A stretch of DNA of 59,531 nt from Candidatus Omnitrophota bacterium (GCA_026387335.1 JAPLLX010000005.1:1-59531); one strand, 5' to 3'; numbered from the stretch's first letter, positions 4,704-40,734 are shown. Notes: generated from the sequence alone by a model not told the origin. A program made the numbers and translations.

Positions 4704-4791
4704 ATCCCCCTCCTCCTTTTTCTTACGTCTTATATTTTATCACCCGAAATAAGGAAGTCAACTACTCTAAAAAAACAATGCAGCCGGACTT

Positions 4792-5739: not shown

Positions 5740-5773
5740 GGCTCTTCCTCCTAGCTTGTATTATACTATAAAT

Positions 5774-7237
5774 ATGCAGAAAAAAATACAAATAGGCTTG
5801 TTAATATTCTGCCTGATCAGCCTGATATATTTTCTTTCGGCAAAAGGGAATATTGAAATATCCGATACTTATTTCTCCATCCAAACCGCAAAAGCAATTG
5901 TTTCAGACCATTCCCTGTCAGCGCAAGGTTGTCGCGGGGGATACTGTTATAAATCAAAACTGGACGGAAAATATTATTCTAAATTCGGCTTAGGGCTGGC
6001 CTTCATCTTTACCCCTTATGTCCTGCTAGCCAAAACTATTGCCGCTTTTACCGGCCTGCCGGAAGATCAACTCATTGATTTTCTCATATCTTTTTACAAT
6101 ATATTTTTCGGCGCCGGCGCCTGCGTAATAATGTTCTGCCTGATCCGGCTTTTCGGGAATTCTAACCGGACATCCCTGGTAATGGCCCTATTATTGGGGC
6201 TGGGAACTTTCTGCTGGCGTTACAGCGCCTGGGATTTCTCCGAAACAGCGCAAATGTTTTTTCTCCTCCTGGCTATTTATCTTCTGCTTAAAAATAACCT
6301 TAAGGATGCGGGTTTAGGGGCATTCTCTTTTTCCTGCCTGCTTTTATTAAAAGCCCAATACATGATCTACCTGCCTCTTTTTCTTTTATATATCTTGATG
6401 CAAAACAGGCGCGATACAAAATTACTTCTTAAGCGCGCGGGTATATTTATTTTTATCAGCCTTTTGGGCTTTGGCTTTATTCTTTTCCTGAATTATATAA
6501 GATTCGGTGAATTTTTGGAATTCGGATACGGTAAGGAAACAGGTCATTTTTATTTTTCGGGGATCAAAGAACACGCGGTGAGGCTGCTCTACTGGCTGGA
6601 TAAGGGAGTATTCATTTATAATCCCTTATTTATTCTGGGGATCCTGGGTTATTTTAAATTTTTTAAAGCCTTCCGGAAAGAAGCGCTCTTCTTCCTCTCT
6701 ATTATCAGCCTTAATTTCATTTTAACTTGCATGTGGCATGGTTGGCACGGAGCAAGCTCCTGGGGGCCTAGATACTTAGTGCCGGTAGCTGCGCTTTGGC
6801 TTATACCCTGCTACGTTTTCTTTTACAAAAAGGGCGCGGTTAAAGTAATATTAATAGCGCTTATTTTCTTATCCGTTTCTATTCAGGGCTTAAGTATCCT
6901 GCAGGGGAATCTTGAGTATCTTACGATTTGTAACGCTAACGAACAGGAAGGAATGCGTAAAGGTATGCCGGCCCAGATTGTCGGGTCGCTTATAGTATTA
7001 AAACATAAATTGGTTAAAAAAGATAGCTTATACAGCCTTTCTGAATTCGGGATAAATTCAGACTCAAAAGTAGATACTTCTGTCTTTCCTTGTTATAAGG
7101 GGTTTGATCTGTGGTATCTAAACGCAGGCCGGCTTCTTAATAAACCGGTACTAAAATTTACGCCTATATTATTTGCGCCTTTAATAATCATCTGTTTTAT
7201 TCGTCTATTAAAAATTACCCGGACGCCGACTACTTAG
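5774..7237 (+). CDS. Polytopic membrane protein, GT-C (ArnT/PMT-like) glycosyltransferase-like
   Basis: More than 10 predicted TM helices. I moved the start to the ATG at 5774 (MQKKIQIGLL), because the track start at 5696 lies antisense inside the neighbouring gene. Confidence 0.5.
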   Translation: MQKKIQIGLLIFCLISLIYFLSAKGNIEISDTYFSIQTAKAIVSDHSLSAQGCRGGYCYKSKLDGKYYSKFGLGLAFIFTPYVLLAKTIAAFTGLPEDQLIDFLISFYNIFFGAGACVIMFCLIRLFGNSNRTSLVMALLLGLGTFCWRYSAWDFSETAQMFFLLLAIYLLLKNNLKDAGLGAFSFSCLLLLKAQYMIYLPLFLLYILMQNRRDTKLLLKRAGIFIFISLLGFGFILFLNYIRFGEFLEFGYGKETGHFYFSGIKEHAVRLLYWLDKGVFIYNPLFILGILGYFKFFKAFRKEALFFLSIISLNFILTCMWHGWHGASSWGPRYLVPVAALWLIPCYVFFYKKGAVKVILIALIFLSVSIQGLSILQGNLEYLTICNANEQEGMRKGMPAQIVGSLIVLKHKLVKKDSLYSLSEFGINSDSKVDTSVFPCYKGFDLWYLNAGRLLNKPVLKFTPILFAPLIIICFIRLLKITRTPTT

Positions 7238-10722: not shown

Positions 10723-11406
10723 TTATAAAGAATTATATTGCTCTAAAAATGCGCTTATGTTTTCTCTTAAAAACTTATAAGTCTTGTCTACCTCTTCCTT
10801 AACTTTATTCACATAGTCGCCTTGTAGTTGTAAAGGAACGAGGAAACGCGCCTGATTCTCCAAGAATATCCTACCAGTATCTTGTAACAAAGATTCCACG
10901 CGTATATTATATTCATTCTGTTCAGTTTGTATCGCAGGAATAAAAAATCTCATACCAATTCCAAGAATTGGTCTGCCAAAAGGCTTCAGTTTCGCCTCAT
11001 CTAACGCACAAACCCTATTTCCCAAAAAAATCCTTGAATCCTTTTCTTTTAATGGAGAGGCTGTAAAACGTATTGTATATTGACGATAGAAAAAAAGCGG
11101 TATATTCAGTATGGTAACAGCTTTTTTTATGTCATCGCTTGCGATTTTCCAGAAACTGTCTAATGTAGCTGATGTAAATTCATTAAGTATAATAATTTTG
11201 TCTCTTGCTATGACTAACTTTTTCACTTCTTGGCTATTTCTGTCTATATGTGATAGCTCTGTTACGTTATCAGCTGGTCTGGTATAGTTAGCATAAGTAT
11301 CTTTGAGTTCCGTAAACAGTTTCTGGGTATTGTCAACAGAGTGGTTCATAGGAGGATTTAAAAATTCAAGAATAAAGGATTGGGGGGTAATTGATGATGT
11401 ATTCAT
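10723..11406 (-). CDS. Hypothetical protein
   Basis: Long ORF (227 aa) with no competing frame. No family recognised. Confidence 0.5.
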   Translation of the reverse strand: MNTSSITPQSFILEFLNPPMNHSVDNTQKLFTELKDTYANYTRPADNVTELSHIDRNSQEVKKLVIARDKIIILNEFTSATLDSFWKIASDDIKKAVTILNIPLFFYRQYTIRFTASPLKEKDSRIFLGNRVCALDEAKLKPFGRPILGIGMRFFIPAIQTEQNEYNIRVESLLQDTGRIFLENQARFLVPLQLQGDYVNKVKEEVDKTYKFLRENISAFLEQYNSL

Positions 11407-11546
11407 TTTTAACCTCGCATTTTCTTATTATTAACAACGCGTTGCTTCTATAATGTTATGGTTTGCGATAATTACAGCTTAATTCGCTTATTTGTAATTA
11501 TAGCACATTTTTTATCCATTACAATCCAGAAATCTTGTCGCGACCT

Positions 11547-11855
11547 CTATACCAACAGTGGCGGAAGTCCCACGCCTTGCTCTTGCGCTTTCTGTCTAAT
11601 ATCAAGCAGATGCTTTTTATCAACTGCTTTCTGATATTGTCTCTTATAATATAGCCCTCCCGTAGATAAATTCAGCCTTAATCCGCTTTCGAGGTTTATG
11701 GCGTGCGGTTTTGACGGAAAATCATCTGGGTCAGTTTTATGAATACGCCAAACGCAACCATCGTTTTTGATAGTGCGCTCGTTGAGAGACCTCATACATC
11801 TATCGGGAATAGGGGAATACCCTAAATCTATTTCTACGATATTTTCATCAGTCAT
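11547..11855 (-). CDS. Hypothetical protein
   Basis: 102-aa ORF with GGCAGGGAAAA upstream. No family recognised. Confidence 0.4.
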   Translation of the reverse strand: MTDENIVEIDLGYSPIPDRCMRSLNERTIKNDGCVWRIHKTDPDDFPSKPHAINLESGLRLNLSTGGLYYKRQYQKAVDKKHLLDIRQKAQEQGVGLPPLLV

Positions 11856-11867
11856 ATTTTCCCTGCC

Positions 11868-12167
11868 TTAATCGCGAATAATTGTTAGCGTGAAGGAATG
11901 AATTTTTCCGATAGGTTCCCTATAATAGAAATCTTCTTTCCTTCTCTTTCCCTTCAGGATATCTATTTCTGAAATAGAAGAAGCAATGGTGCACGATGTA
12001 ACGGACTTATCTTCTAACATCCTTTGAAAAACTTCACCCAACCACTCACGCACGTTTTGAAATAACCTTGCTTTGTATTGTATAAGCCTTACAACTCCTT
12101 CGGCTATGATGTCGACTATTTTGCCGAACCTTTCCTTTGTGCTATATTCTAAATTCAGCGTCTTCAT
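11868..12167 (-). CDS. Hypothetical protein
   Basis: 99-aa ORF that overlaps the end of the upstream gene by 26 nt. Confidence 0.35.
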   Translation of the reverse strand: MKTLNLEYSTKERFGKIVDIIAEGVVRLIQYKARLFQNVREWLGEVFQRMLEDKSVTSCTIASSISEIDILKGKRRKEDFYYREPIGKIHSFTLTIIRD

Positions 12168-13017
12168 TATAATTTCCTCCTAATCCTTGCCCGTGCTTTA
12201 ATATCATCCTGACCCGCATATCATTTGCGAGCCTGCTAAAAATACGTTTCCTTTGCTCCAAATCGCCGACCTCAAATTTGACTATCTCAATGAGGCTGAT
12301 TATCGTTTCGCGCGCTTCCTTAACCTTAACATCAATATCAACCCCTTCAGCCAGAAGCAACTTCGTAGTATCAGCGGAGGTTAAACCAAATTTATCGTAT
12401 ATATTTAACAATTGCTGCGCTTCGCATCGAAGCTGAATAAGAATGTCGCATTGAATATCAATAATCGCACACGTTTCTCGCGATGCTTCCTTTAAGGCTT
12501 CTGTTTTTATGCGCGCATTCGGATTCTTTTGTAGCCTAATATAAGTTCTCTCTAAAATCGCCCCCAATATCTGCAATGACCTGTTCAGATAATCGTATTT
12601 ATGCCAGAGGAGTCGTATTCTGGTATCAACCTGCGCCGTCAAATCAACCAATAACCCAAGAGCCAACTTATTTAATCTTATGTCCTGTTTGATGCCTTGC
12701 AATAGCTCCTGTTTATAGCTACTCAAGTCCTTATGGACTTGGGATTTTGAAATACCGAGCTTTTCTGCTATCTCGCGGATACTATCTCGCTTGGCAAAGT
12801 ATAAAGTGATTTCTTCTTTAATTCTTACTACGCGCCTTTTAGCGATGCCATTTAAGTGCGTATTAAAATCATCCTCGGTCATAGAAACCTCAACCGGCAT
12901 ATTTATTTCAGGAGAAAAATTGGTATCTATGAAAACTTCGGGGAGGAAATTAACATCAATATGAAGACCTTCTTCGTCTTTATAGCTTGTTTGAATCGTT
13001 TTGTCCACTTTGTCCAC
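12142..13017 (-). CDS. Helix-turn-helix DNA-binding protein (sigma-70 region 4 / terminase-small-subunit-like HTH)
   Basis: HTH segment IREIAEKLGISKSQVHKDLS. The rest is predicted helical. No catalytic motif recognised. Confidence 0.5.
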   Translation of the reverse strand: MDKVDKTIQTSYKDEEGLHIDVNFLPEVFIDTNFSPEINMPVEVSMTEDDFNTHLNGIAKRRVVRIKEEITLYFAKRDSIREIAEKLGISKSQVHKDLSSYKQELLQGIKQDIRLNKLALGLLVDLTAQVDTRIRLLWHKYDYLNRSLQILGAILERTYIRLQKNPNARIKTEALKEASRETCAIIDIQCDILIQLRCEAQQLLNIYDKFGLTSADTTKLLLAEGVDIDVKVKEARETIISLIEIVKFEVGDLEQRKRIFSRLANDMRVRMILKHGQGLGGNYNEDAEFRI

Positions 13018-13105
13018 CCCCCGAACGACGCTTTTTACCTTAATTTTGCGCCTTTTTTATGCTTAAAACGGCGACCTTACGACGCTTTTTATGTATAATG
13101 CGTCG

Positions 13106-13675
13106 TTACACTGACAACAATTCTGAAGCCTGCTGCATCTGTTCTTTATTGACGTGAGTATAAATTTGCGTTGTAGATATATCTGAATGCCCAAGAAACG
13201 TCTGAACCAATCGAAGATTGTTGGTCTTGTTAAGCAGTTTTGTGGCTACTGTGTGCCTTAAGCAATGGGGCGAATAATGCCCTTCAATGCCTGCTTCTTT
13301 GACCCATTTATCAAAATCGCGTTCGATTGCCCGCCTGCTAATACGATTTCCCTTCCTACTAATAAAAAGAGGCGCATCCGGAGCCAAGCTTTCACTACGC
13401 CTTGCTTTCCAGCGTAAGAAAGTCTCGATATGGTCTCTGATTGATTTGTTAAGTGGAATCTCTCGAATTTTTGAGCCTTTCCCAATTATTTCAAGCGCGC
13501 TTTTTCCTTGAACATCGCCAACGTTAAGACCCGCTAATTCTTTTAAGCGCAATGCAGTATTAAGTGCAAGATTAAACATTGTATTGGAGCGTTCGGCATC
13601 CTTCCTCAAGCGAAGGGTCTTTTTAAAAATCACTTCTTGGTCAGACGTAAGGTACTTAAAGCCTTGCCTATGCAT
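13106..13675 (-). CDS. Tyrosine recombinase/integrase, catalytic domain only
   Basis: Catalytic residues in order: ALNTALRLKEL (Arg), HCLRHTVAT (HxxR), LGHSDISTTQIYTHV (His...Tyr). At 189 aa it lacks an N-terminal core-binding domain. Confidence 0.8.
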   Translation of the reverse strand: MHRQGFKYLTSDQEVIFKKTLRLRKDAERSNTMFNLALNTALRLKELAGLNVGDVQGKSALEIIGKGSKIREIPLNKSIRDHIETFLRWKARRSESLAPDAPLFISRKGNRISRRAIERDFDKWVKEAGIEGHYSPHCLRHTVATKLLNKTNNLRLVQTFLGHSDISTTQIYTHVNKEQMQQASELLSV

Positions 13676-14261
13676 TTTTTAATGCCTTCTTTATGAACCT
13701 CGATAATTCTTTTTGCTCCTGAAGCTGTTCCAGTTCATCAAGTTTTCTTCTGAATTCAGCTAACGCCTCTCTGGTTATATTCTCTAATTTACTTGCATCT
13801 TTCTTAAATTCAGTCTTAACCTTCTGTATTTTGGTCGCTATATCCGGCTGTTTATCATTAGATTTGATATTAAAAGCGGGATGATTACCTGCCTTCAAAC
13901 TTGATGCGATAAAGCTGGAAACCTGCTTTTCTACATTGAGCTGCATCTCGATTTGCTTTTTAAGTGAATGTGTTTCGGCAAAGACCCTTTGCGTATCTTC
14001 TTTAAGCTTTTCCTTAATCTCCGCGAACGTGGCTCCTTTATCCTTTTCTTTGAGAATCCGTTGCAGATGCCTTACGGCGCATTCTAAATAAAGAGCGATT
14101 ATTCCTTTTCCTTTGCTTGTTTTTATTGGAGGAGGGATAAGATGTAAAGTATCGCGGAGGTAAGCGAACATCTTTTTGCTTAATTTCCCTCCGAGTGCTT
14201 CGAGAAATTCGGAGATAGTGTAGGGTTTTGTTTTGAGATTAGCAAGGATTCTATTTAGCAT
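13668..14261 (-). CDS. MerR-like HTH / coiled-coil protein overlapping the recombinase start
   Basis: N-terminal YTISEFLEALGGKLSKKMFAYLRDTLHLIPPP...GIIALY resembles a MerR-type HTH. The C-terminal half is coiled-coil-like. The gene junction is the 8-nt overlap ATGCATAG. Confidence 0.5.
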   Translation of the reverse strand: MLNRILANLKTKPYTISEFLEALGGKLSKKMFAYLRDTLHLIPPPIKTSKGKGIIALYLECAVRHLQRILKEKDKGATFAEIKEKLKEDTQRVFAETHSLKKQIEMQLNVEKQVSSFIASSLKAGNHPAFNIKSNDKQPDIATKIQKVKTEFKKDASKLENITREALAEFRRKLDELEQLQEQKELSRFIKKALKNA

Positions 14262-14353
14262 TTGCCCATAGTATAAACTATGGATAATAAAATGTCAAGT
14301 AAATATTTGGCTTAATTGGGTTGCGGAAAGAACAGTTAATTTTGTGGCAATAT

Positions 14354-14782
14354 CTATGTTTTGAAAAATTTCTTATCACGGACTACGATTCTCTTTTGAC
14401 AAGTCGGACAATTTACTCCGCCCTCTTTTGAAATCAAACTGATTACTTTAGTATTACAGTAAGGACAATCACCTTCAATGCTCGCCGACCCAAAAAATGG
14501 AGACAAAAAAAGCGCTAATATCCCTGTAAGAATAACAATAATACCAATTGGCGCCAATATTCCTGTTAAACATAAAATCACTCCTATAGTAAAAGAGAAA
14601 CTACAGTAAGCTATCCCAGTACCAAAAGCTAAAGCCATTCCCTTCCCTTTGATGTCTTTGGTATCCGTGGATTTTTTATTTATCTCTGCTTCGTTCTTTT
14701 CTTGCTTAATAAATTCCCCACAATGTTTACATTTAATAGCTTCAGGTTGTATTTCTTCGGCACAATATGGACATTTTTTCAT
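14354..14782 (-). CDS. Zinc-ribbon membrane protein
   Basis: N-terminal CPYC...CKHC ribbon, two TM helices, and a C-terminal CPYC...CPTC ribbon. Confidence 0.6.
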   Translation of the reverse strand: MKKCPYCAEEIQPEAIKCKHCGEFIKQEKNEAEINKKSTDTKDIKGKGMALAFGTGIAYCSFSFTIGVILCLTGILAPIGIIVILTGILALFLSPFFGSASIEGDCPYCNTKVISLISKEGGVNCPTCQKRIVVRDKKFFKT

Positions 14783-14800
14783 AACGCGCTCCTTTTATGT

Positions 14801-15628
14801 CTATATTTTATAAGTAGCTTTTACCACAAATGCTATTTCATCAATAAAACGACCCTGTAGGTCAATAGAGAGTGCTTTTATCGGAGTTACAGCACAACCA
14901 ACAAATATTCCAACTGTAGTATTAGCATAGTTAGTGCTGTCTATACTAGATTCTCTGAAATCAGAATATTTAACACCAAGATAAGGCATAAAATACTTGA
15001 ATCTCTTGGCTGCACCAAGAGCAACCTGCCATTCCTGCCAATCAACCAGAAATTTTGGCACTGCAGAAGAACCACCACCATAATAATAATAACCACCTTC
15101 ATAAGGAGAAGGCGAAGACGACTGAAAATTACTATTGTAGTCAATATTGTTTACTGCTCTATATTTCCCATCAGCAAAAAATTTAATACCGTAATTCTTC
15201 CATTCATAAATTGGCACACTTAATCCTACACCCCAAGTAAGCTTATCTTTCGGTTTGACACTATAATCTTCCTCGCTTTCATATCCTAAATTCTGCGCTT
15301 TTCCGAAAATCCCATAAATATCAAATTTGTTAATAATTGTTAGAATTATCTTGCTGGTATAAAATTGACCTTTTACCTTTGCAGTGCCACCACCCCAGTA
15401 ATCTGCTAAATCTAACTTTCTTGAACTTAAAAAGTCTGCTTCGGCAGCTATTGATAATCCTATGCCTAATTTTTTATCATTAAAGATATTCCCTTCCAGA
15501 CCCTGAATTTCTGTAGGCACATCCACAGGGGCAGCATAAAGAAATCCAACTATAAAGCACCCACTCATCAATGTTAGTATAACGATTAGATAGATTGGTT
15601 TTTTAATATCAGTACCCTCCTTTAGCAC
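14801..15628 (-). CDS. Outer-membrane beta-barrel protein (porin/OmpA-TM-like); start uncertain
   Basis: Signal peptide with LMSGC. Alternating aromatic/Gly beta-strand pattern with a Gly/Tyr-rich loop. The track start is GTG, and a strong AAGGAGG lies inside the first codons, so the true start may be a few codons downstream. Confidence 0.6.
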   Translation of the reverse strand: MLKEGTDIKKPIYLIVILTLMSGCFIVGFLYAAPVDVPTEIQGLEGNIFNDKKLGIGLSIAAEADFLSSRKLDLADYWGGGTAKVKGQFYTSKIILTIINKFDIYGIFGKAQNLGYESEEDYSVKPKDKLTWGVGLSVPIYEWKNYGIKFFADGKYRAVNNIDYNSNFQSSSPSPYEGGYYYYGGGSSAVPKFLVDWQEWQVALGAAKRFKYFMPYLGVKYSDFRESSIDSTNYANTTVGIFVGCAVTPIKALSIDLQGRFIDEIAFVVKATYKI

Positions 15629-28891: not shown

Positions 28892-28959
28892 TTTTGACCC
28901 TTTTCCCCCTCCAAATAAACCAAGACTTTAGCTGCAAATCAAAAAAAGCGGAAAATAAT

Positions 28960-29044
28960 CGGAGAGGGAGGGATTTGAACCCTCGAACCCTTGCGGATTA
29001 CGTGTTCTCCAGACACGCGCGCTCGACCACTACGCGACCTCTCC
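28960..29044 (-). tRNA. tRNA-Ser (anticodon GGA)
   Basis: Acceptor GGAGAGG/CCTCTCC, anticodon loop CTGGAGA, long variable arm, T arm with TTCAAAT loop. Confidence 0.85.
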
Positions 29045-29055
29045 AAAATTTAATA

Positions 29056-29098
29056 CTTGAGTGCCGTAAACTTTTCCCTTGTCGGGAAAAGTTTACGG
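29056..29098 (-). repeat. Conserved tRNA-Ser trailer element (copy after Ser-CGA)
   Basis: Perfect 15-bp hairpin 29064-29098 (CCGTAAACTTTTCCC / GGGAAAAGTTTACGG, loop TTGTC on the plus strand), followed on the minus strand by CACTCAAG. Confidence 0.6.
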
Positions 29099-29182
29099 AG
29101 AGTGGAGGATTTGAACCTCCGGTCGCCTTACGACGACAACGGTTTTCGAGACCGCCGCATTCGACCACTCTGCCAACTCTCC
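29096..29182 (-). tRNA. tRNA-Ser (anticodon CGA)
   Basis: Acceptor GGAGAGT/ACTCTCC, anticodon loop CTCGAAA, long variable arm, T arm GGAGG-TTCAAAT-CCTCC. Confidence 0.9.
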
Positions 29183-29202
29183 AACAATTTATTAGACAAC
29201 CT

Positions 29203-29257
29203 GCACTCCGCTCGCTTGAGTGCCGTAAAATTTTCCCTTGTCGGGAAAATTTTACGG
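29203..29257 (-). repeat. Conserved tRNA-Ser trailer element (copy after Ser-TGA)
   Basis: Perfect 15-bp hairpin 29223-29257. It differs from the Ser-CGA copy by one compensated base pair. It is followed by CACTCAAG and a second stem, GCACTC-AAGCGAGCG-GAGTGC. Confidence 0.6.
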
Positions 29258-29341
29258 AGGAGGAAGGATTCGAACCCTCGGAGACCTTACGGCCTCAACG
29301 GTTTTCAAGACCGCCGCATTCGACCGCTCTGCCACTCCTCC
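29255..29341 (-). tRNA. tRNA-Ser (anticodon TGA)
   Basis: Acceptor GGAGGAG/CTCCTCC, anticodon loop CTTGAAA, long variable arm, T arm GAGGG-TTCGAAT-CCTTC. Confidence 0.9.
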
Positions 29342-29347
29342 ATTAGA

Positions 29348-33182: not shown

Positions 33183-33245
33183 GCAGTTTTTAGTGTGCGA
33201 TGTGAACTGTTAACTGCTGGGAAGAAATATTGGTTTTAAATTTAA

Positions 33246-33318
33246 TGGGCCATGCAGGAGTCGAACCTGCGGCCTTGACATTAAGAGTGTCCTGCTCCGC
33301 CAATTGAGCTAATGGCCC
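33246..33318 (-). tRNA. tRNA-Lys (anticodon CTT), no encoded CCA
   Basis: Acceptor GGGCCAT/ATGGCCC, D arm GCTC..GAGC, anticodon loop CTCTTAA, T arm GCAGG-TTCGACT-CCTGC, discriminator A. Confidence 0.9.
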
Positions 33319-33733
33319 ATTACTAATAGTTACTCCTTCAATCCAACCAAGTATCTTATATAAAAGATTCTTATCGCAGACTTCAACTTTTATTGTCCCA
33401 TTATACAGGATATTTTTACGATAGCCAGTACCTTCTTTTTTAACATAGCTCTTGCCAAATCGCGAAACGGGCAGGCCTATTACATTCGACCAAAACTCTT
33501 TGCAGCCTGCCCCTATAATTTCCTTCCTTCAATAGTGTCTGCAGCCTATCCTTCTGTATCTCTGTTAACTCAATATCTTTACACCAGTCGCTTACTGTGC
33601 TTTTTGCAATTTTAAACGGCGCTATCTGCCTTAGTTCTTTATAACTCAAGCTCTGTTTTCTTAAATCTCTGACTAATTCTTTCTTCTCCCAGTTCTTCAT
33701 AGCTTGGGATCTCCACGCCTGCCTAATGAACAA
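33319..33733 (-). pseudogene. HTH-domain gene that appears frameshifted, with the downstream frame reading into tRNA-Lys
   Basis: The track ORF 33440-33733 encodes an HTH (SYKELRQIAPFKIAKSTVSDWCKD). A second frame continues RKEIIGAGCKEFWSNVIGLPVSRFGKSYVKKEGTGYRKNILYNGTIKVEVCDKNLLYKILGWIEG and has no stop before entering the tRNA. Confidence 0.3.
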
Positions 33734-33878
33734 ACAGATATGCTTTAAGCTAATAGCCTGAATTACTACTCACTTTTGAATTTGAGATATTTTAACTTAA
33801 AATGGGGTGCTTTGCAAGGCGGAATTTATTTATCTTTAGCTCAATTTGGGGTAAAAAATATACCCGTCACTTTTATTA

Positions 33879-34622
33879 CTATTTCTTTCTTGCCTGAATG
33901 ATTAAATGCCTGCCAAAAAGTAGCTCATTTGACAATAAGATTCTGTTTATCCTCCGGTAATCTACGCCGCCTTTTTTCATTGCCCGTCTTTCCTTCTGCC
34001 AGGACTGAAACTTAAGTAACGGTAATAATACAAAACTGAGAAATTTCAGCGATGGCTTCATCAAATCCGTATAAACACTTTCCGCAGAAAGCCCATTCTT
34101 AAATAAAAGATACTCTAATTCTTGATACCGCCAAACAACAATGTGCATATTTTGTAACCCGCTCGGGAATATTTTGCAGTAATCTAAAATTGGCTCGCGA
34201 AAAAAATCAAAGCCACCCTCGAATAAAAACCTAATCCGTGAACCCAGATTTAAAATATTTGGCGTAGATATAATTAAGGCGCCTCCCGGCTTTAATAGTC
34301 TGCTAATCTGCCCAATAACAAAATCTGGATTATATAAATGCTCTATAACTTCCAAAAATAGAATGTAATCAAAGCTGTTTTCTGGAAATGGCAGGGATCT
34401 TTCCAGATTACTTGCCTCAAATTTTATTAGATTACGGTATTTAAACCTCTCTATATCCATATCAGAAGCAACCACCTCAAACCCCGAATCTTTTAACCTT
34501 TTCGCGCAATTACCATCTCCACAGCCTAGATCCAACACCTTGCCTTTTGGAAGATTAGTAAATAACGCGGTAACCGCCTCAAGAAGATAGTTTTGTTTAT
34601 TTTCCCCCATATTCCCTTCCAT
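33879..34622 (-). CDS. Class I SAM-dependent methyltransferase (small-molecule/Methyltransf_11-like)
   Basis: Motif I VLDLGCGDG, an acidic motif II (VVASDMD), and motif-III-like LKPGGALIIST. No DPPY/NPPY-type DNA-methylase motif seen. Confidence 0.75.
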   Translation of the reverse strand: MEGNMGENKQNYLLEAVTALFTNLPKGKVLDLGCGDGNCAKRLKDSGFEVVASDMDIERFKYRNLIKFEASNLERSLPFPENSFDYILFLEVIEHLYNPDFVIGQISRLLKPGGALIISTPNILNLGSRIRFLFEGGFDFFREPILDYCKIFPSGLQNMHIVVWRYQELEYLLFKNGLSAESVYTDLMKPSLKFLSFVLLPLLKFQSWQKERRAMKKGGVDYRRINRILLSNELLFGRHLIIQARKK

Positions 34623-34695
34623 GTAACTGTGGTTGATTATACACCATCATATATGGGGGTGTCAAATATTAAAATATCGTGTAAGATTATAAAGT

Positions 34696-34911
34696 ATGAA
34701 TACTTTGGCTGGAATACAGTTGGGTAAAAGAATTAAAGAGTGGCGTAGGAAACGTGGGATTACGCAGGAACAACTAGCTGAGCTTATAGATACGAGCTAC
34801 AAATATATTCAAAGAATAGAAGGAAAAAATCCTCCAGATATACGATTAACTACTATCATAAGACTTGCCAAAGCGTTGAAGGTAAAGCCTGCCGAATTGT
34901 TGAAATTTTAA
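34696..34911 (+). CDS. XRE-family helix-turn-helix transcriptional regulator
   Basis: 71 aa, with LGKRIKEWRRKRGITQEQLAELIDTSYKYIQRIEG, the canonical Cro/C1-type HTH. Confidence 0.85.
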   Translation: MNTLAGIQLGKRIKEWRRKRGITQEQLAELIDTSYKYIQRIEGKNPPDIRLTTIIRLAKALKVKPAELLKF

Positions 34912-34948
34912 CTTAAGTCTTCTAATTTGTTCTTATGCCGATACTATT

Positions 34949-37900
34949 CTAACTTTCGTATTGAGGCAAGATTGGAGAAATGGGAATAGACTGAGCATTA
35001 CTACGACTCTCTTTATAATTCGTCAGCACATCACAGATACTACTTAGCTTGTTTTTATCACCTTCTATAAATTTAAGCAAAACTTTTTCCTCTAAATTCT
35101 CAATATCATTCATAGTACATATATTATTACTTAGGAGACGTAAATAATCGCCTCTTGTGAGCTTTTTGCCTAATCTCATTGCAATTTCGAGAATTTTTCC
35201 TGATACTCCTAATTCAAGACGAACTAAAAATCGAGACACTCTTTGATTCAAATCACTGCCAGGATATAAAATTTCTACAACCCTTGCAACTACGGGCAAA
35301 ATATCACAAGTTCTAGAAACGACGCTTCTGATTGGTCCTGCAGCACCGTCAAATTTTCCACCAAATTGCGTCAAAATATCCTCCATATCTATAAGGGGCT
35401 TATCCGTAATCCATAAAAGACAAGCCACAGCTTTTTTCGCTCTTAATGTTGACTGGCTTTCTTCTTTAATTGAATACCTTAATGAAGAGAGAACGCATTC
35501 TGGAACACCTTGATTTCGGATTTCACTCATCCAAGTTTGTGGTTCTTTTTGAGTACTCTTTTTATTAATTGGAAAATGTATATCATTAAGCTCAACAGAA
35601 ATTTGAGTAACGGCAATCAAAGTAGGATCGTTGATACTCTCTGGGTCAACGCTCTTAAATGTCCTAACGAAACGAATAATACTTTCTACCTCTACACCAG
35701 CTTCGCCTGACAATCTGCCTAATTGAGTAAGATGATATAATCCATTCTGATCAATTTTAATAAGATCATTTGCAACCAACCCATCCAAAGCACTTTTAAG
35801 AATTGCTTCATCCCAAACCCATCGTTGATCTATTTGTTTCCGTTGAAATACACCAAAGCTCTGTTCTAAGAATTCTATTATTTCTTGCGCTGGAAGACCT
35901 TGGCCTGATCGTTCTGCAGCTGTAAGAACACGCACTATAAGTGAACGTGGATCAGTATTTGAAGCTAGAAACTTTGAATTTAAATCTTCTGGTGAACCCA
36001 ATACATAATTTCTCCATACTTGATATTCCTCATTCCCATCTTGAGCTATCACATAAGAAGTACCTTTTTTAGTAAATCCAAGCCTACCTGCCCTACCAAT
36101 GATATTTTTGTATTCAGCAATAGAATAGGGCTTATTACCTGGATGCATCAAACCAGCGATAACCACTGCTTCGGCAGGTGTATTAACGCCCATCGCTAAG
36201 GTCGTAGTGGCGGAAATCACTTTCAATGCAGTAGGCGAAGCTCTAAATTGTTCTTCAATAAGCAACCTCTCTTCTGTATCCAAATCAGAAATATGGAAAG
36301 CTGTGCCTCCTGCTAGTGCATCTCTTAATCGTTGAGAAGAAAGAGAGGGATCTCCGTTAGGCAGCATATCTAATACTGATTGAGCCGGAGCTAGACCCAG
36401 CGTTTCAGCAAGATATAGGGCACAACCTCTAGCTTCTCCTCTTGTTTCCCTAAAAACAATCACACTCTTACCTTCGCTAACTAATTTCCTAACTAATGGA
36501 ATTATTAAATCTTGGCTTGATCCTTTACGGAATTCAGGGACTATGTGTCTTGTTATCACCGCTTCTTTACCATCTTCAGCAGATATAAATCTGAAACTAC
36601 CGTCTAACCTAAGCACTCCTTCATCTAGGGGGATTGGTCTTTCTGTTCTCTTAAGTAATCTAGCATTAAGCCAGCGTTCAAGACCATTTGTATCACCAAT
36701 AACAGCTGATAGGGCAATAAGCTGTGGTTCAATACCTTGTCTACGACGCATCTTTAAAAGCGTAAGAATGAACTCGAGATTTACTCCTCTAGATTCGTCT
36801 GCTATCATTTGAACTTCATCTATAACCACCGTTCCTACTTGTTCAAGAATATGTGGATTACCGAGAACTAAAGCTGAGAATTTTTCATATGTCATTAGAC
36901 AGATGTCATACTGTCCACGCATCAAAGGCAAGATATCGTCGCTTGTACTATCGCCAGTAGCTCTAATAGTTTTTATTCCAAAATCTTGGTATGCTAATGT
37001 AAAATGTCTGAATTTATCATTTACCAGAGCTTTTAAAGGAAAAAGAAATATTGCTCTCTTTCGCTCTAAAACATTCTTTAAGGCAGCAAGTTCACCTATC
37101 ATTGTTTTTCCTGAAGAAGTCGGCGCTGAAACAACTATATGTTCTCCATCAAGCAGATTAAACTCATTTATGGCATCTACCTGTAATTGATTAAGCGAAG
37201 GTATTAAACCAGCCCATACTTTTAACAACTCTTGTGGGAAACCGTAAACTGTCAAACTTTTAACATCAGTAGTAACTTTATGTTTTGTACGTTCGGGAAA
37301 AAGAGATTGATATAACGCCCCCGGTTTAAAAACTGGCCATGTTAAATCCCCATTGATAGTGCCGCGTAACGTTGGATGTTGCGGCTTCCCTAACTTTGAA
37401 GCATCGTCTATTACACGTTGCGTTACATATTCAAGAAGCCGATAAACTCCAATTTTTCCTGCTTTAGTAACTTCTTCAACGCCTTGTATTGCAGAAAGCA
37501 AGTGATATGTTAAGAGCCCGTGACCATATTTTTGATTTTCCCAAGCCTTCTCTGTTGCAAGAGACGCGGTAATAATCAACCTTCCTTCTCCCGATAACTG
37601 CTTGAGGAGCTCTTCTGTTGATCTTAGTTCTCTAGCGCTCATATCTACTTGAAGTGCCTTAGCACCCATACCACCAGAAAAACAACAATCCAAAATAAAA
37701 ATTAAACGGTTCGTACGAATACGAAATAACCATTCCGATAAAACATCTAACGGAATACAGGTTTCAGTTAAATTGCTCCTATCGGCATCATATGTAACTA
37801 GTTCGTGGGTTTCTGTGCCATGTCCAGAAAATGCAATCACAACAACATCATCATCGCTACATCCAGATAATTTATTAAATTCTAGTTCAATAGCTGCACG

Positions 37901-38056
37901 ACTAGCATCTTTATCTATAAGCAGTTTCGTGTTGTTTCCCAGGTTATCAGTAAAGAGACCATACAGAGCCTTGGCATCACACTTAGCACAATTTAGCCAA
38001 TTAATTGTAGGTGAAGCATATCTGTCTATACCGATAAAAAGTCCGTAGAATTTCAT
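34949..38056 (-). CDS. Fusion protein: N-terminal caspase-like peptidase C14 domain plus Ski2/Hel308-like SF2 (DExH) helicase with a winged-helix/ratchet-like C-terminal region
   Basis: Caspase part (about aa 1-240): GLFIGIDRY, AFSGHG (His79), ILDCCFSGG (Cys125), YGHGLLTYHLLSAIQG. Helicase part: Q-motif-like LNQLQVDAI, Walker A SAPTSSGKT (about aa 311-318), DEVQ (413-416), SAV, TTTLAMGVNTPA, GRAGR. The C-terminal roughly 330 aa are helical. Confidence 0.85.
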   Translation of the reverse strand: MKFYGLFIGIDRYASPTINWLNCAKCDAKALYGLFTDNLGNNTKLLIDKDASRAAIELEFNKLSGCSDDDVVVIAFSGHGTETHELVTYDADRSNLTETCIPLDVLSEWLFRIRTNRLIFILDCCFSGGMGAKALQVDMSARELRSTEELLKQLSGEGRLIITASLATEKAWENQKYGHGLLTYHLLSAIQGVEEVTKAGKIGVYRLLEYVTQRVIDDASKLGKPQHPTLRGTINGDLTWPVFKPGALYQSLFPERTKHKVTTDVKSLTVYGFPQELLKVWAGLIPSLNQLQVDAINEFNLLDGEHIVVSAPTSSGKTMIGELAALKNVLERKRAIFLFPLKALVNDKFRHFTLAYQDFGIKTIRATGDSTSDDILPLMRGQYDICLMTYEKFSALVLGNPHILEQVGTVVIDEVQMIADESRGVNLEFILTLLKMRRRQGIEPQLIALSAVIGDTNGLERWLNARLLKRTERPIPLDEGVLRLDGSFRFISAEDGKEAVITRHIVPEFRKGSSQDLIIPLVRKLVSEGKSVIVFRETRGEARGCALYLAETLGLAPAQSVLDMLPNGDPSLSSQRLRDALAGGTAFHISDLDTEERLLIEEQFRASPTALKVISATTTLAMGVNTPAEAVVIAGLMHPGNKPYSIAEYKNIIGRAGRLGFTKKGTSYVIAQDGNEEYQVWRNYVLGSPEDLNSKFLASNTDPRSLIVRVLTAAERSGQGLPAQEIIEFLEQSFGVFQRKQIDQRWVWDEAILKSALDGLVANDLIKIDQNGLYHLTQLGRLSGEAGVEVESIIRFVRTFKSVDPESINDPTLIAVTQISVELNDIHFPINKKSTQKEPQTWMSEIRNQGVPECVLSSLRYSIKEESQSTLRAKKAVACLLWITDKPLIDMEDILTQFGGKFDGAAGPIRSVVSRTCDILPVVARVVEILYPGSDLNQRVSRFLVRLELGVSGKILEIAMRLGKKLTRGDYLRLLSNNICTMNDIENLEEKVLLKFIEGDKNKLSSICDVLTNYKESRSNAQSIPISPILPQYES

Positions 38057-38134
38057 TTTTCTTAGTGTTTATGTATGAATTTTACCTCAGGTATCTGTCT
38101 GTAGCAAAGATTCCTCATAGTTCTCCTCAATCTT

Positions 38135-39016
38135 TTAAATAAATACGCCTTTATCATCAAAAGGTGTATAAACTCCCCCTGTAAAATTACCATAATTCAA
38201 ACCAAATTTAATTTCGATGCCTAAAAGAACATAGGCAATCGCTAGAGTGGTTCGGGGATCAAGTGTTATCCCATTTTTCTCAGTATGCGATGCTCCGCTA
38301 ACTTCTATTATCTCCACTTTGCTTTTATAAAAATCTGGATCTAACCCTTCTTTATTGTATTTTGCGCTTCTCATGACCGCCAAATCTATTGTTCCTGCAA
38401 AGCAATACAATTTCTTAACCCTATTTAGAAGTTTTTCTCTTGTTCCTATCTCATTTATATACTTGATTGGGAATTGGTCAGGATCTAAGTTTACACATTG
38501 CATCATATGATGCAGTTCACCTTTTTTGAGTTTAGGAAGAAGATCTGCTAACTCTCTACCTTCATGAGGAGTAGCAACAGTGATTAGACTATTAACTTTT
38601 AAAAGTGGGCTGACATCATCAATTACGGCTGCAACTGCGTCTAAACCACCCATGCTGTGTCCAACTAAATCAAAATCTTGACTTTCCTCTATTTTACTCA
38701 AAATTTTGTTTTTAAGAATGACCCCAAAATCGAGGAAACTCTTGCATCTTTTAGATTCATCATCGCTAAAAGTTACGTATTCCACTAAATCGCAATTCTT
38801 GAATATTCCTGAAAACCACTCTTTTATAGAAATACCGAATTTCTTATTACTAACTGTCCACCATGTATTATCCTCATCAGTCCAACCAGGAACAAAAAAA
38901 ACTGGCCTCTTAAGAGTTAATTTTTGCAGTGAGAATTGACTCAGCTTACTTAGTGCATTCTCTTTCTGTTTCTTCCTCTCCTCTATCATATCTTGGACTA
39001 CACCAGTAGTAGGCAT
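38135..39016 (-). CDS. Alpha/beta-hydrolase, lipase/esterase-like (PGAP1/DUF676-like)
   Basis: PVFFVPGW oxyanion-region pattern, nucleophile elbow GHSMGG (Ser121), and a downstream TVATPHEG motif. AAAGGAGGAATATT lies before the ATG. Confidence 0.7.
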   Translation of the reverse strand: MPTTGVVQDMIEERKKQKENALSKLSQFSLQKLTLKRPVFFVPGWTDEDNTWWTVSNKKFGISIKEWFSGIFKNCDLVEYVTFSDDESKRCKSFLDFGVILKNKILSKIEESQDFDLVGHSMGGLDAVAAVIDDVSPLLKVNSLITVATPHEGRELADLLPKLKKGELHHMMQCVNLDPDQFPIKYINEIGTREKLLNRVKKLYCFAGTIDLAVMRSAKYNKEGLDPDFYKSKVEIIEVSGASHTEKNGITLDPRTTLAIAYVLLGIEIKFGLNYGNFTGGVYTPFDDKGVFI

Positions 39017-39039
39017 AATATTCCTCCTTTTTTACATAC

Positions 39040-39071
39040 AAAAAACCCTCGCCTTTTGAGCGAAGGTTTTA
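39040..39071 (-). terminator. Rho-independent terminator after the 215-aa gene
   Basis: On the minus strand, stem ACCUUCGC/GCGAGGGU (with one G-U pair) is followed by UUUUUUG. A-run and T-run flank both sides, so it could act in both directions. Confidence 0.55.
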
Positions 39072-39144
39072 ATTATTTTAAAGTGGCGGATTTACCCCTT
39101 CAAACTGCACCACTTGTTAAATTTATCAAATTCATTCTAAAAAT

Positions 39145-39792
39145 TTACGTAAAAGTTGCTCCTTCGTCTCCTAAGCATACTTGATGACTCATATCCCATA
39201 ATAAATATCTAATAGCAAAATAATTATACGAGGATGGCCCCTCAATGACTAAGTTACCGATATTCTTTTTAAATAGATCTTTCGACCTATTATTCGCATC
39301 CCCTGTTGTATGGCCTTTTAATAAAGCAATTGGAATATGATTTGAGGGTTCTAAAAATAATTCTGCAGTTTTATCTTCAAGTGGTCTTCTTATATTTGTT
39401 GAGTTAGAAGCTACTATAAACTCTTCTTTATATCCTAGATAAGCAAGAGCACCTTGTGTTATGCAATTTTGTCCCAACTTCTTTGCAGAATTACAAGAAC
39501 GAGCATAAATAATCTTACCTTTTATGGCTTTGTTATCATCCTCCTTTAAAATAACTTCATTATCATGGCCATGAACAGAAATATCACTACCGTGCCCATT
39601 TAAGATAACTAACTTCGCACCCGTTTTTTCCAAAATCCCGATAACTCTGTTCCTATTCGCCTTTTCACGGTGGAGGTCTATAACTTTTACATTCTTCTTT
39701 TGTGCTATATCTATTATTTGCTCACTCCATTTAGAAAGATAATGAGTTGCTTCATCGTGTTCTGGTCTTGTAATGAGTAACACTCCTACCAT
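39145..39792 (-). CDS. Small protein with a caspase/CHAT-like His-Cys pattern (tentative)
   Basis: A beta-strand followed by GHG (LVILNGHGSD, His67), a second hydrophobic strand ending in Cys (KIIYARSCNS, Cys100), then GALAYLGY. This is the order seen in caspase-hemoglobinase-fold proteases. The call rests on pattern only. Confidence 0.4.
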   Translation of the reverse strand: MVGVLLITRPEHDEATHYLSKWSEQIIDIAQKKNVKVIDLHREKANRNRVIGILEKTGAKLVILNGHGSDISVHGHDNEVILKEDDNKAIKGKIIYARSCNSAKKLGQNCITQGALAYLGYKEEFIVASNSTNIRRPLEDKTAELFLEPSNHIPIALLKGHTTGDANNRSKDLFKKNIGNLVIEGPSSYNYFAIRYLLWDMSHQVCLGDEGATFT

Positions 39793-39797
39793 ATAGC

Positions 39798-40049
39798 TTA
39801 ATTTTGGTTTAGCTGTTCTAGTAAAACACCTTCTTTTAAAGCTCTCAAGAAAGACAGCTCTATGTCAACAATTTTCTGACCGACTTCGTCTCCTTGTTTT
39901 ACGCATTCAATAAGCTGCTCTCTGGTAAATTCGCCTACTGAACCGATATGAATTCTTACATGAGAAGGAAGAACATCAAGTCGCTCAATAACAAGATCTT
40001 TTAGCTCTTCTGAGATTTCTTTTTTTTGTTGCCCTGCTTCTTCTGTCAT
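39798..40049 (-). CDS. Small acidic hypothetical protein (83 aa)
   Basis: ORF abutting the upstream 69-aa ORF (the stop of one is adjacent to the start of the other) and ending 5 nt before the 215-aa gene starts. Confidence 0.5.
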   Translation of the reverse strand: MTEEAGQQKKEISEELKDLVIERLDVLPSHVRIHIGSVGEFTREQLIECVKQGDEVGQKIVDIELSFLRALKEGVLLEQLNQN

Positions 40050-40259
40050 TTAAATTATGCCTAATCCTTTTAATTTTTCCAGAATTTGTTCGCACCTTGC
40101 TGTATTGTTTTTTACCTCAAAATAAACAACTTCCCATGTAATAGGTTGTTTTTTCCCTTCTTCTTCTAAAACAAGTACAATTTCTTTACGCGTGTTTAGC
40201 GGAAGATTCGCATAAGCTTTTAGAAACTGCTCTCTATTATTATTTTCTGGATTACACAT
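40050..40259 (-). CDS. Small hypothetical protein (69 aa), weakly similar to the 83-aa neighbour
   Basis: First gene of the minus-strand cluster. Shares a loose L-P ... R..I ... T.E ... VK pattern with the next ORF. Confidence 0.45.
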   Translation of the reverse strand: MCNPENNNREQFLKAYANLPLNTRKEIVLVLEEEGKKQPITWEVVYFEVKNNTARCEQILEKLKGLGII

Positions 40260-40696
40260 AAATTAATAGAAATAAAACAAAGGTAGGTACCTATATCCTA
40301 AAAATCTGCCTATATACATAAAGGTAAGATTAAATTTCCTCAGTGATATCCGTAATTAACCCAATTGAATTACCCTTAGGTTAATTATACTAGATAATAA
40401 GGCAATGTCAAATAAATTGTGAGCTAGGAGTTAATCAGTTAAGAATGCGTTATTTTAATAAAACAGAACTATTCCCTAAATATTGCCCTTTTCTAGTACT
40501 AGAATTATTTTAGTAGCGAAACTTGAGCTACCTCTCTTTGTATCTCTGAACCCTGTAAATGTCCAAAAAGTGTCCATTTGATATTAAAAATCATTAAAAT
40601 TACTTAAAATACTTTAAAACAAAAAATTCTTTAACTTATTGAAGGAGTTCATAGTTACAATAAAATCAACGGCTTACAGGAATTATTCCGGACGGT

Positions 40697-40734
40697 TTAA
40701 GAGTGTCCTGCTCTGCCAATTGAGCTAATGGCCC
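40697..40734 (-). repeat. Orphan 5' half of tRNA-Lys(CTT) (acceptor 5' strand through the anticodon loop)
   Basis: 37/38 identity to 33281-33318. Similarity stops exactly after the anticodon loop. There is no 3' half next to it. Confidence 0.85.

Follow-up and report, generated by a model that had tools for sequence, protein, structure and literature searches.

The window analysed here, a stretch of 59,531 nucleotides (nt) from a Candidatus Omnitrophota bacterium (GCA_026387335.1, JAPLLX010000005.1:1-59531), contains five co-oriented minus-strand open reading frames (ORFs) on a low-GC island that begins at a tRNA-Lys gene. They encode proteins of 69, 83 and 215 amino acids (aa), an alpha/beta hydrolase, and a 1035-aa protein in which a caspase domain is fused to a helicase of the Hel308 type. 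A preliminary description of this DNA took the five genes for a single, undescribed defence system in which the helicase would be the sensor and a protease and a lipase the effectors. All five ORFs exist where it had placed them (Table 1), but the comparative evidence makes it very probable that they represent three independent units lying side by side on a mosaic accessory island: the fusion gene, the solitary hydrolase gene and a trio of genes for the 69-, 83- and 215-aa proteins. Tentatively, we read the fusion as a widespread and still unnamed one-protein immune sensor-effector, and the trio as a new minimal caspase-fold proteolytic switch.

The argument for independence rests on the composition of related loci, approached from each of the three units. 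On the fusion side, 39 loci were available (35 from genomes, three from close relatives and one viral). Searches of the 35 genome loci with tblastn returned no homologue of the hydrolase, of the 215-aa, 83-aa or 69-aa protein, or of the helix-turn-helix (HTH) protein, methyltransferase and 97-aa ORF that share the island, and homologues of the hydrolase or trio were equally missing from the three close-relative loci and from the viral one. On the trio side, neither the hydrolase nor a true fusion homologue occurs in any of 88 loci, made up of 80 metagenome loci and the eight loci L039-L046. On the hydrolase side, roughly nine loci contain neither the fusion nor the trio. Because co-occurrence is seen from none of these directions, the proposed module fails as a unit; adjacency on an island is weak evidence when co-occurrence is absent. 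The five-gene system as proposed would thus be no real entity, and the result keeps a false system out of the catalogues, leaving in its place two clean, conserved and testable units, a fusion gene of 3.1 kb and a compact trio operon of 1.1 kb.

Other parts of the preliminary description fared better. Its division of the genes into two transcription units is strongly supported for the 69-83-215 trio, whereas the pairing of hydrolase and fusion that it implied is conserved nowhere else. The coupling of a helicase sensor to degradative effectors that it invoked is reasonable for the fusion by itself and does not extend to the five-gene set. Its statement that the gene set corresponds to no named system holds: PADLOC (2023 release) yields partial matches to the helicase core and nothing for the other four proteins.

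Table 1. Features of the tRNA-Lys island and its genes (positions count from the first nucleotide of the window).
Feature	Position	Strand	Basis
1035-aa caspase-Hel308 fusion, stand-alone unit	34949-38056	-	ORF call; domain profiles, alignments, model
N-terminal Peptidase_C14 caspase domain (~aa 1-245)	37322-38056	-	Pfam, alignments, AlphaFold model
Complete Hel308/Hjm-type SF2 DNA helicase module (aa 285-1015)	35012-37204	-	Profiles, PDB matches, Foldseek
69-aa protein, trio gene 1	40050-40259	-	No known family
83-aa protein, trio gene 2	39798-40049	-	No known family
215-aa minimal clan-CD (caspase-fold) cysteine protease, trio gene 3	39145-39792	-	Alignment, AlphaFold, Foldseek
Perfect sigma-70 consensus (TTGACA-16-TATAAT) upstream of trio	40384-40411	-	Promoter scan
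Terminator-like hairpin, 12-bp stem, closing trio operon	39042-39070	-	Hairpin analysis
293-aa alpha/beta hydrolase (PGAP1/DUF676/palmitoyl-thioesterase-like), solitary unit	38135-39016	-	Pfam, alignment
Intact tRNA-Lys(CTT), one island boundary	33245-33319	-	ARAGORN
Direct repeat of tRNA-Lys positions 2-39, other island boundary	40697-40734	-	Pairwise alignment, blastn-short
97-aa ORF, island cargo outside the five genes	33440-33733	-	No match in Pfam, PADLOC, NCBIfam, PHROGs
Class I SAM-dependent methyltransferase	33879-34622	-	Pfam Methyltransf_23, 1.8e-20; PADLOC mad2, 3.7e-13
71-aa XRE-family HTH protein	34696-34911	+	Pfam HTH_3, 7e-13

The caspase-Hel308 fusion and its genomic setting

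The fusion of a caspase to a helicase, already proposed in the preliminary description, is borne out by domain profiles. Residues 6-233 match Pfam Peptidase_C14 (PF00656) above its gathering score (50.1 bits against a cutoff of 21.4; E = 3.9e-13) and are followed by matches to DEAD and Helicase_C. The His/Cys dyad expected of C14 peptidases is present as H79 (FSGHG) and C125 (DCCFSGG), both invariant in 35 fusion sequences from many phyla, and the same sequences preserve without exception the helicase motifs Walker A (GKT316-318), II (DEVQ413-416) and VI (GRAGR654-658). Judged from these sequences, both enzymes of the fusion are under selection. The residues earlier proposed for mutagenesis (H79, C125 and K317 here, S121 in the hydrolase) all proved invariant.

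The helicase part has the architecture of Hel308/Hjm, with superfamily 2 (SF2) motifs and the order RecA1-RecA2-winged helix-ratchet-helix-hairpin-helix. Archaeal Hel308 profiles of NCBIfam extend over residues 285-1015 (profile positions 21-707 of 739, E = 3e-82), with scores below every Hel308 equivalog cutoff of that collection (276.9 against 887 bits; 226.8 against 1200 bits), that is, short of orthologue level. The best sequence matches in the PDB are Hjm/Hel308 structures (2zj2 at 3e-54, also 2va8, 9b15 and 2p6r); ASCC3, the helicase domain of PolQ and Brr2 come next in the ranking, and HamB (8vx9) reaches just 1e-21. The AlphaFold model (predicted local distance difference test score, pLDDT, 78.6) superimposes on whole Hel308 structures over ~750 columns with target-normalised template modelling (TM) scores of 0.81-0.86 in Foldseek, and HamB is not among its top 50 Foldseek matches.

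The least confident stretch of the caspase model is a loop that directly follows the catalytic cysteine (aa 138-143). It contains the near-invariant R142, and a near-invariant S146 lies close by (aa 138-146 correspond to positions 37618-37644). Caspases and metacaspases have inter-subunit linkers, and by comparison with these the segment at aa ~138-146 would be a candidate autoprocessing site, and the near-invariant arginine within it suggests Arg specificity as in metacaspases.

Proteins of this kind are widespread. About 1,700 homologues from more than 10 phyla are found at E below 1e-10, and the top 120 matches are all ~1030-1040 aa long and 58-89% identical to the fusion. The 35 loci of the genome scan come from Elusimicrobiota, several phyla of the candidate phyla radiation (CPR), Bacteroidota, Actinomycetota, Chloroflexota, Acidobacteriota, Clostridia, Rickettsiales and others. 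When the caspase part and linker (aa 1-285) were compared with 1.8 billion representatives, 39 of the best 150 clusters (at 50% identity) were proteins of ~1000-1060 aa that align from residue 1 through the linker, at 31-62% identity. As far as such sequence comparisons reach, this shows the caspase-helicase architecture to be old and diverse.

The fusion gene travels without companions. All-against-all clustering of the neighbouring ORFs in the 35 genome loci revealed no conserved partner gene, and the relatives at 89%, 86% and 84% identity share with the window only the fusion gene, their flanks being occupied by HsdS and an HTH protein (89%), by PIN_12 and GGDEF/Cas10-palm proteins (86%) and by a MjaI-type restriction-modification system (84%). 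DNA homology with these relatives begins 3-15 nt upstream of the fusion start and ends ~50-150 nt before its stop; it is thus confined nearly to the gene itself, and what homology the flanks retain consists of short pieces. Directly beside the fusion one finds, among others, a type III Res-like helicase together with an endonuclease, a HEPN-nucleotidyltransferase, a superfamily 1 (SF1) helicase with an nSTAND NTPase, a HamA+HamB pair, an E1-E2 enzyme of the type found in the cyclic oligonucleotide-based antiphage signalling system (CBASS), a DUF559 restriction enzyme, AbiU2 and Mrr. The commonest Pfam families among 134 neighbours in 32 fusion loci are phage integrase, resolvase/recombinase, AAA_15/AAA_21 (Gabija GajA, OLD-like), ResIII, Eco57I and N6_Mtase. 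The setting of the fusion is one of defence or mobile islands, not of housekeeping genes, and a stand-alone defence role therefore stays plausible. The preliminary description had named a housekeeping context, free of the other island genes, as evidence that would speak against its proposal: by this test of its own the five-gene claim fails, as fusion homologues do occur without these neighbours, though in defence and mobile contexts. Phage origin is not supported, since scans of 2.9 million viral contigs found the fusion once (L051) and the trio and the hydrolase not at all.

Several individual fusion loci deserve mention. In L037, which contains the 86% relative, the fusion adjoins the same archease-RtcB-SerRS genes as in the window, with a tRNA-Lys gene directly upstream of it and with PIN_12 and GGDEF cargo instead; the two loci are one and the same chromosomal hotspot, filled with different cargo. 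There (3462-6635) the start of the PIN_12 gene overlaps the fusion stop and is followed by a 172-aa ORF and the GGDEF/Cas10-palm-like protein, a set that may be another uncharacterised module at the archease-RtcB hotspot. In the same locus, 52 nt beside archease (6632-6683) are a remnant of the HTH gene found in the window. A 56-nt intergenic piece with a terminator-like hairpin (39060-39114) is 89% identical to positions 2646-2701 of L036, where it precedes an unrelated 111-aa gene that takes the hydrolase's place upstream of the fusion; this piece may be a junction or a regulatory element that loci of the hotspot have in common. In L011, from Chryseobacterium, a complete Hachiman pair lies directly downstream of the fusion (11237-14682; HamA at 1.2e-60 and a helicase of ~850 aa), and in L009 a 263-aa gene and a 1052-aa helicase gene resembling that pair occupy the same position (11117-15068), an arrangement that places two Hel308-like helicase genes next to each other. 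Finally, a family of 385-390-aa proteins, 60-82% identical to one another and with no match in Pfam or PADLOC, is encoded directly downstream of the fusion in L003 (11198-12370), L019 (11139-12296) and L032 (11421-12368), which are loci of Clostridia and Acidobacteriota. The family has no relation to the PIN_12 protein of L037. Present in three of 39 loci, it is no general partner of the fusion and was rejected as such; it may be an optional one.

The fusion may be a genuine single-gene defence protein. We give this candidacy a little less than even weight; it draws on what is observed, namely the domain architecture, two active sites that are intact and invariant, inheritance as a lone gene and residence in defence islands, and the scheme that follows adds to these a DNA trigger, a mode of protease activation and substrates that we infer. 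The Hel308 module would load on aberrant DNA, for example 3' tails, forked structures or intermediates of phage replication and recombination. The fused caspase would be set free when the module engages DNA, turns over ATP or oligomerises, perhaps by cutting itself in the disordered loop at ~138-146; once active, it would cleave host or invader proteins and stop the infection, with an outcome like that of abortive infection. If the scheme is true, bacteria have joined genome surveillance of the Hel308/PolQ type and death proteolysis of the caspase type, hallmarks of eukaryotes and archaea, in one polypeptide.

An undescribed three-gene cassette and a solitary hydrolase

The genes for the 69-, 83- and 215-aa proteins are tightly packed: the end of the first (40050) abuts the start of the second (40049), and 5 nt separate the second from the third. 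A perfect sigma-70 consensus promoter precedes them, and the hairpin terminator reported in the preliminary description is confirmed between the 215-aa gene and the hydrolase gene. The trio is complete and in the same order in all 69 metagenome loci that have at least 520 nt of upstream sequence, and exact look-ups found it complete in each of the eight loci L039-L046. All three genes are well conserved, and analysis of the neighbours of the trio loci revealed no other conserved gene. The trio is thus an obligate three-gene cassette with its own promoter and terminator, one that is undescribed. Its genomic site varies: it follows dnaG-rpoD, lies between dnaE and a type II secretion system (T2SS) operon, adjoins a serine recombinase and tRNA-Asn (L039) or HicAB (L045), or, as in the window, sits on a tRNA-Lys island. 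In one of these loci (L046, 921-3863) the DnaG primase encoded upstream of the trio is 980 aa long, against 597 aa, and has a weak match to LAGLIDADG_3; its extra length suggests an intein or a homing-endonuclease insertion.

The 215-aa protein belongs to a family of 680 members of ~214 aa, whose named members so far are only 'hypothetical protein' entries from Candidatus Omnitrophota. Neither it nor the 83-aa and 69-aa proteins have a significant match in Pfam, PADLOC, NCBIfam or PHROGs, and when 43 homologues of the 215-aa protein were scanned singly against Pfam, two gave a faint match to Peptidase_C25 and the others none. The caspase-like His/Cys pattern that had been noticed in it is nevertheless real. 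His67 (NGHG) and Cys100 (RSC) are invariant in the 43 homologues, and in the AlphaFold model, a single domain with a pLDDT of 97, the histidine follows the strand at 59-65 and the cysteine the strand at 94-98, which is the canonical clan-CD layout. The best Foldseek matches of the model, every one a clan-CD protease, are the SAVED-CHAT filament 8tl0 (E = 4e-6) and gingipain R (1cvr, TM 0.65), followed by legumain, caspase-4, C11 proteases and the Craspase TPR-CHAT protein; 4awb, 7wr0 and 7y84 are among the top identifiers, and the Foldseek probability is 1.00 for 8tl0, 1cvr and 7y84. From this modelled structure we confidently assign the protein to the clan-CD (CHAT/gingipain/caspase-fold) proteases. 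It is the smallest caspase-fold protease that can be related here to solved structures, and offers a tractable model for clan-CD control. Profile searches with the 83-aa and 69-aa proteins against PDB sequences gave nothing below E = 0.4. The idea that these two are paralogues was rejected, as BLASTP gave no match between them and hhalign a probability of 2.6%. Conceivably, the protease processes the two small proteins co-translated with it or is held back by them, in a switch of the toxin/antitoxin or abortive-infection (Abi) type. Such a proteolysis-gated switch is the candidate function that we favour, though with low confidence, a housekeeping maturation role being about equally likely.

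The lipase-like hydrolase of the preliminary description is equally well founded. It has a PGAP1-like alpha/beta fold above the Pfam cutoff and the GHSMGG motif, and its triad Ser121/Asp211/His244 is invariant in 33 homologues, from which the enzyme is predicted to be catalytically competent and of lipase/thioesterase type. PADLOC, NCBIfam and PHROGs contain no significant match. Among its ~184 homologues, the closer relatives (52-77% identity) reside in variable, defence-rich islands with different partners each time: AbiEii, a LexA-like protein, Lactamase_B and CBASS in one; TIR-STAND, AbiEii and AbiGi in another; Exo_endo_phos and DUF6119, or Peptidase_C1 and patatin, in others. An Omnitrophota homologue at 38% identity has HSP20 and Msr as neighbours. 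In L047 (5001-9031), the gene for a homologue at 67% identity overlaps a Lactamase_B gene, of the metallo-beta-lactamase (MBL) fold, by 26 nt; a patatin gene and an SMODS CBASS pair lie downstream and AbiEii and LexA-like genes upstream, which makes this locus a dense defence island on a contig that resembles a conjugative element (TraH).

The island and competing readings

The tRNA-Lys island of the preliminary description is real. It is marked by an intact tRNA-Lys(CTT) gene, by a GC content that drops to 0.335-0.39 between 33 and 41 kb, the flanks having 0.42-0.46, and, at the far end, by a tRNA-derived repeat that matches the tRNA at 37 of 38 positions in pairwise alignment (97% in blastn-short, E = 2e-14). 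Because these tRNA-derived sequences bracket it, its limits can be set at roughly 33320-40696, a span of ~7.4 kb. The 5' end of the tRNA gene is directed toward the island and its 3' end away from it; the repeat terminates exactly at the anticodon loop and sits just upstream of the promoter of the 69-aa gene. What is duplicated is the tRNA's 5' half, which puts the island on that side of the gene; for these reasons classical integration at the tRNA 3' end was rejected. Of the features that define a tRNA-integrated genomic island, tRNA-derived repeats at both ends and deviant composition are thus present, and an integrase together with a duplicated 3' part of the tRNA is absent.

Besides the five genes, the island holds the 97-aa ORF, the S-adenosylmethionine (SAM)-dependent methyltransferase and the XRE-family HTH protein. 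The methyltransferase gene has its own perfect sigma-70 consensus promoter (34665-34636, by promoter scan), around which the HTH gene diverges from it; toward the fusion gene, the HTH gene is convergent. An HTH homologue, 55% identical, is encoded near a hydrolase homologue in L050 (7113-7328). The nearest named relatives of individual window genes are in Omnitrophota and Elusimicrobiota. All eight tRNA genes of the window are on the minus strand, three tRNA-Ser genes (GGA, CGA, TGA) being clustered at 28959-29342.

Several observations weigh against the account given so far, of a mosaic island carrying an independent immune fusion and an independent proteolytic switch. The island may have arisen by site-specific integration, a step that we put conditionally because ORF calls and Pfam identify no integrase or recombinase domain among its genes and because the repeat copies the tRNA's 5' half. 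Integrative elements usually duplicate the 3' part of a tRNA, so that the polarity here is unusual. For the related loci, the genes were called only crudely, as ORFs. The 78-nt gap between the hydrolase and fusion genes contains no terminator and a single weak promoter-like site, so that the two are probably co-transcribed in the window and a local functional link between them is possible. The fusion lacks a conserved substrate or partner gene, which leaves no target indicated for its protease; and with a mean column identity of 66-71% across phyla it is unusually conserved for a defence gene and could have a conserved cellular role instead. The neighbours of the trio mix core genes (rpoD, obg, dnaE, dnaG) with accessory ones (N6_N4 methyltransferase, PD-(D/E)XK, reverse transcriptase, KAP NTPase), which makes a role outside defence just as likely as one within it.

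The alternative that survives best, and that we regard as quite possible, concerns the trio, which could serve a housekeeping maturation process in Omnitrophota-like bacteria, the two small proteins being structural or regulatory ones that the protease processes. The strict co-inheritance and good conservation of the three genes, the frequency of core neighbours, the confinement of named members to Omnitrophota and the absence from the viral contigs scanned all fit such a role; set against it are a location that differs between genomes, the proximity to a serine recombinase and tRNA-Asn or to HicAB, the position on the tRNA-Lys island in the window, and the accessory genes among the neighbours.

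The corresponding alternative for the fusion, a helicase of DNA repair or replication restart of the Hel308/PolQ type whose caspase serves regulation or damage-induced death, seems to us improbable without being far-fetched. True Hel308/Hjm and the helicase domain of PolQ are nearer relatives of the helicase part than HamB is, the protein is very highly conserved and of constant length, and the closest phage family is labelled a Holliday-junction branch-migration helicase in PHROGs. A repair function is difficult to reconcile with the patchy phyletic spread, in which ~60% identity is retained among CPR bacteria, Myxococcota, Bacteroidota and Actinomycetota and which implies horizontal transfer; with the location in variable islands rich in integrases and restriction-modification genes, devoid of synteny and, in the window, of low GC; and with scores below every NCBIfam Hel308 equivalog cutoff.

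It is very unlikely that the fusion acts on the neighbouring hydrolase as its pro-effector or substrate, the hydrolase being one of several variable effectors beside a conserved sensor-protease. The 78-nt spacing without a terminator is compatible with such a local pair, as are the varied effector-like genes that hydrolase homologues precede (Lactamase_B, Exo_endo_phos, Peptidase_C1) and the 385-390-aa gene found immediately downstream of some fusions (L003, L019, L032); in the trypsin-HamA system, moreover, the pro-effector is a separate and typically upstream gene (PMC12799240). Yet the pair is seen nowhere else, even at 84-89% fusion identity, where the upstream gene is another ORF, of 111 or 183 aa, and what adjoins fusions directly is in most cases a complete, known defence gene and not an orphan effector. 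The operon of hydrolase and fusion reflects local juxtaposition and no conserved pairing. Least credible of all, to the point of near-dismissal, is the original view of five genes as one defence system, since co-orientation, tight packing on one low-GC island, intact active sites in all the enzymes and the lack of a PADLOC name are outweighed by the complete lack of co-occurrence, by a terminator that parts the trio from the hydrolase and fusion, and by close relatives that keep the fusion and swap its flanks.

Comparison with known systems

With Hel308/Hjm and PolQ the fusion shares an end-to-end alignment of its residues 285-1015, the helicase motifs and the close structural match of the model. 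It differs in the 285-aa N-terminal caspase and linker, which no Hel308 possesses, in the DEVQ form of motif II, in scores that lie far under the equivalog cutoffs (277 against 887 bits), and in being bacterial and horizontally scattered in defence islands. Hel308 has been described as absent from bacteria (PMC12278908). Helicases of Hel308 architecture are nonetheless common there, as caspase fusions, and if the fusion defends cells, the claim that bacteria lack Hel308 would need qualifying. Both Hel308 and HamB recognise DNA with 3' tails or fork-like structures (PMC12278908).

Hachiman likewise combines a Hel308-like DNA-sensing helicase with a degradative effector. In its trypsin-HamA/HamB/MBL variant (HamMAB), the helicase senses 3'-overhang DNA and ATP hydrolysis frees a fused protease, which activates a pro-nuclease (PMC12799240; bioRxiv 10.1101/2025.09.03.673762); by analogy, this variant is the closest experimentally supported precedent for the fusion. 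The island, however, encodes no HamA (DUF1837, PF08878), MBL pro-nuclease or trypsin domain according to Pfam, in a search that does find HamA, at 1.2e-60, in L011. The C14 caspase of the fusion is joined directly to the helicase, and HamB is a more distant relative of that helicase than Hel308 (1e-21 against 3e-54): HamB profiles of PADLOC match only the helicase core (5e-34, at most 115 bits), and Hel308 profiles and structures fit better. In L011 a complete HamA+HamB pair even stands beside the fusion as a separate system. Since it has no HamA, trypsin, MBL partner or conserved substrate gene and carries its caspase on the helicase itself, the fusion would resemble helicase-gated protease systems in its manner of working and is no member of Hachiman.

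The immune caspases of bacteria (Canu CanABC and the gasdermin-associated, TIR-caspase and EACC1-associated proteins) have in common with the fusion the C14 domain and an intact His/Cys dyad, and its matches to PADLOC 'caspase' (7e-14) and to NCBIfam caspase_w_EACC1 (1.3e-21) are weak and below the family cutoffs (77 against 140 bits). Unlike them it has no gasdermin, MBL pro-nuclease, TIR or EACC1 partner, its sensor being the fused helicase. The MBL-fold (Lactamase_B/MBL) pro-nuclease that characterises nuclease-protease pairs (trypsin-HamA or Avs with MBL; Canu) is not found by Pfam among the island genes. Nor is the island a patatin-bearing CBASS: its hydrolase belongs to the PGAP1/DUF676 type and is not a patatin, no SMODS is detected on the island by Pfam, and PADLOC gives no match. 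The match of the fusion to the PADLOC profile PDC-M23B covers aa 292-466 plus one further segment, short of full length, and scores just 116 bits; with no PDC-M23A match among the neighbours, the gene does not qualify for the PADLOC candidate system PDC-M23.

The 215-aa protein of the trio shares the caspase-hemoglobinase fold and the catalytic His/Cys with CHAT-type and other clan-CD proteases. It differs from CHAT, SAVED-CHAT, Craspase, gingipain and legumain in having no SAVED, TPR or pro-domain, and is related to them at 10-14% identity and TM 0.55-0.65; and in contrast to CHAT systems it is always accompanied by the two small proteins and has no CBASS or type III CRISPR neighbours.

A census made in 2012 counted 12 bacterial metacaspase sequences with helicase domains (PMC3501461), which probably represent the same architecture as the fusion or a related one. 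That census is a tally of architectures alone, with no family, Hel308 assignment, genomic context or function, and full-text literature searches found no defence protein described that joins a caspase to a Hel308/Ski2-like helicase. Against this background the novelty of the fusion is that of a helicase-coupled protease in a single chain, whose protease is a different one and whose helicase is closer to true Hel308 than in the known kind. If it defends cells, the principle that a helicase gates a protease, known from trypsin-HamAB, would extend to caspases and to a one-protein format.

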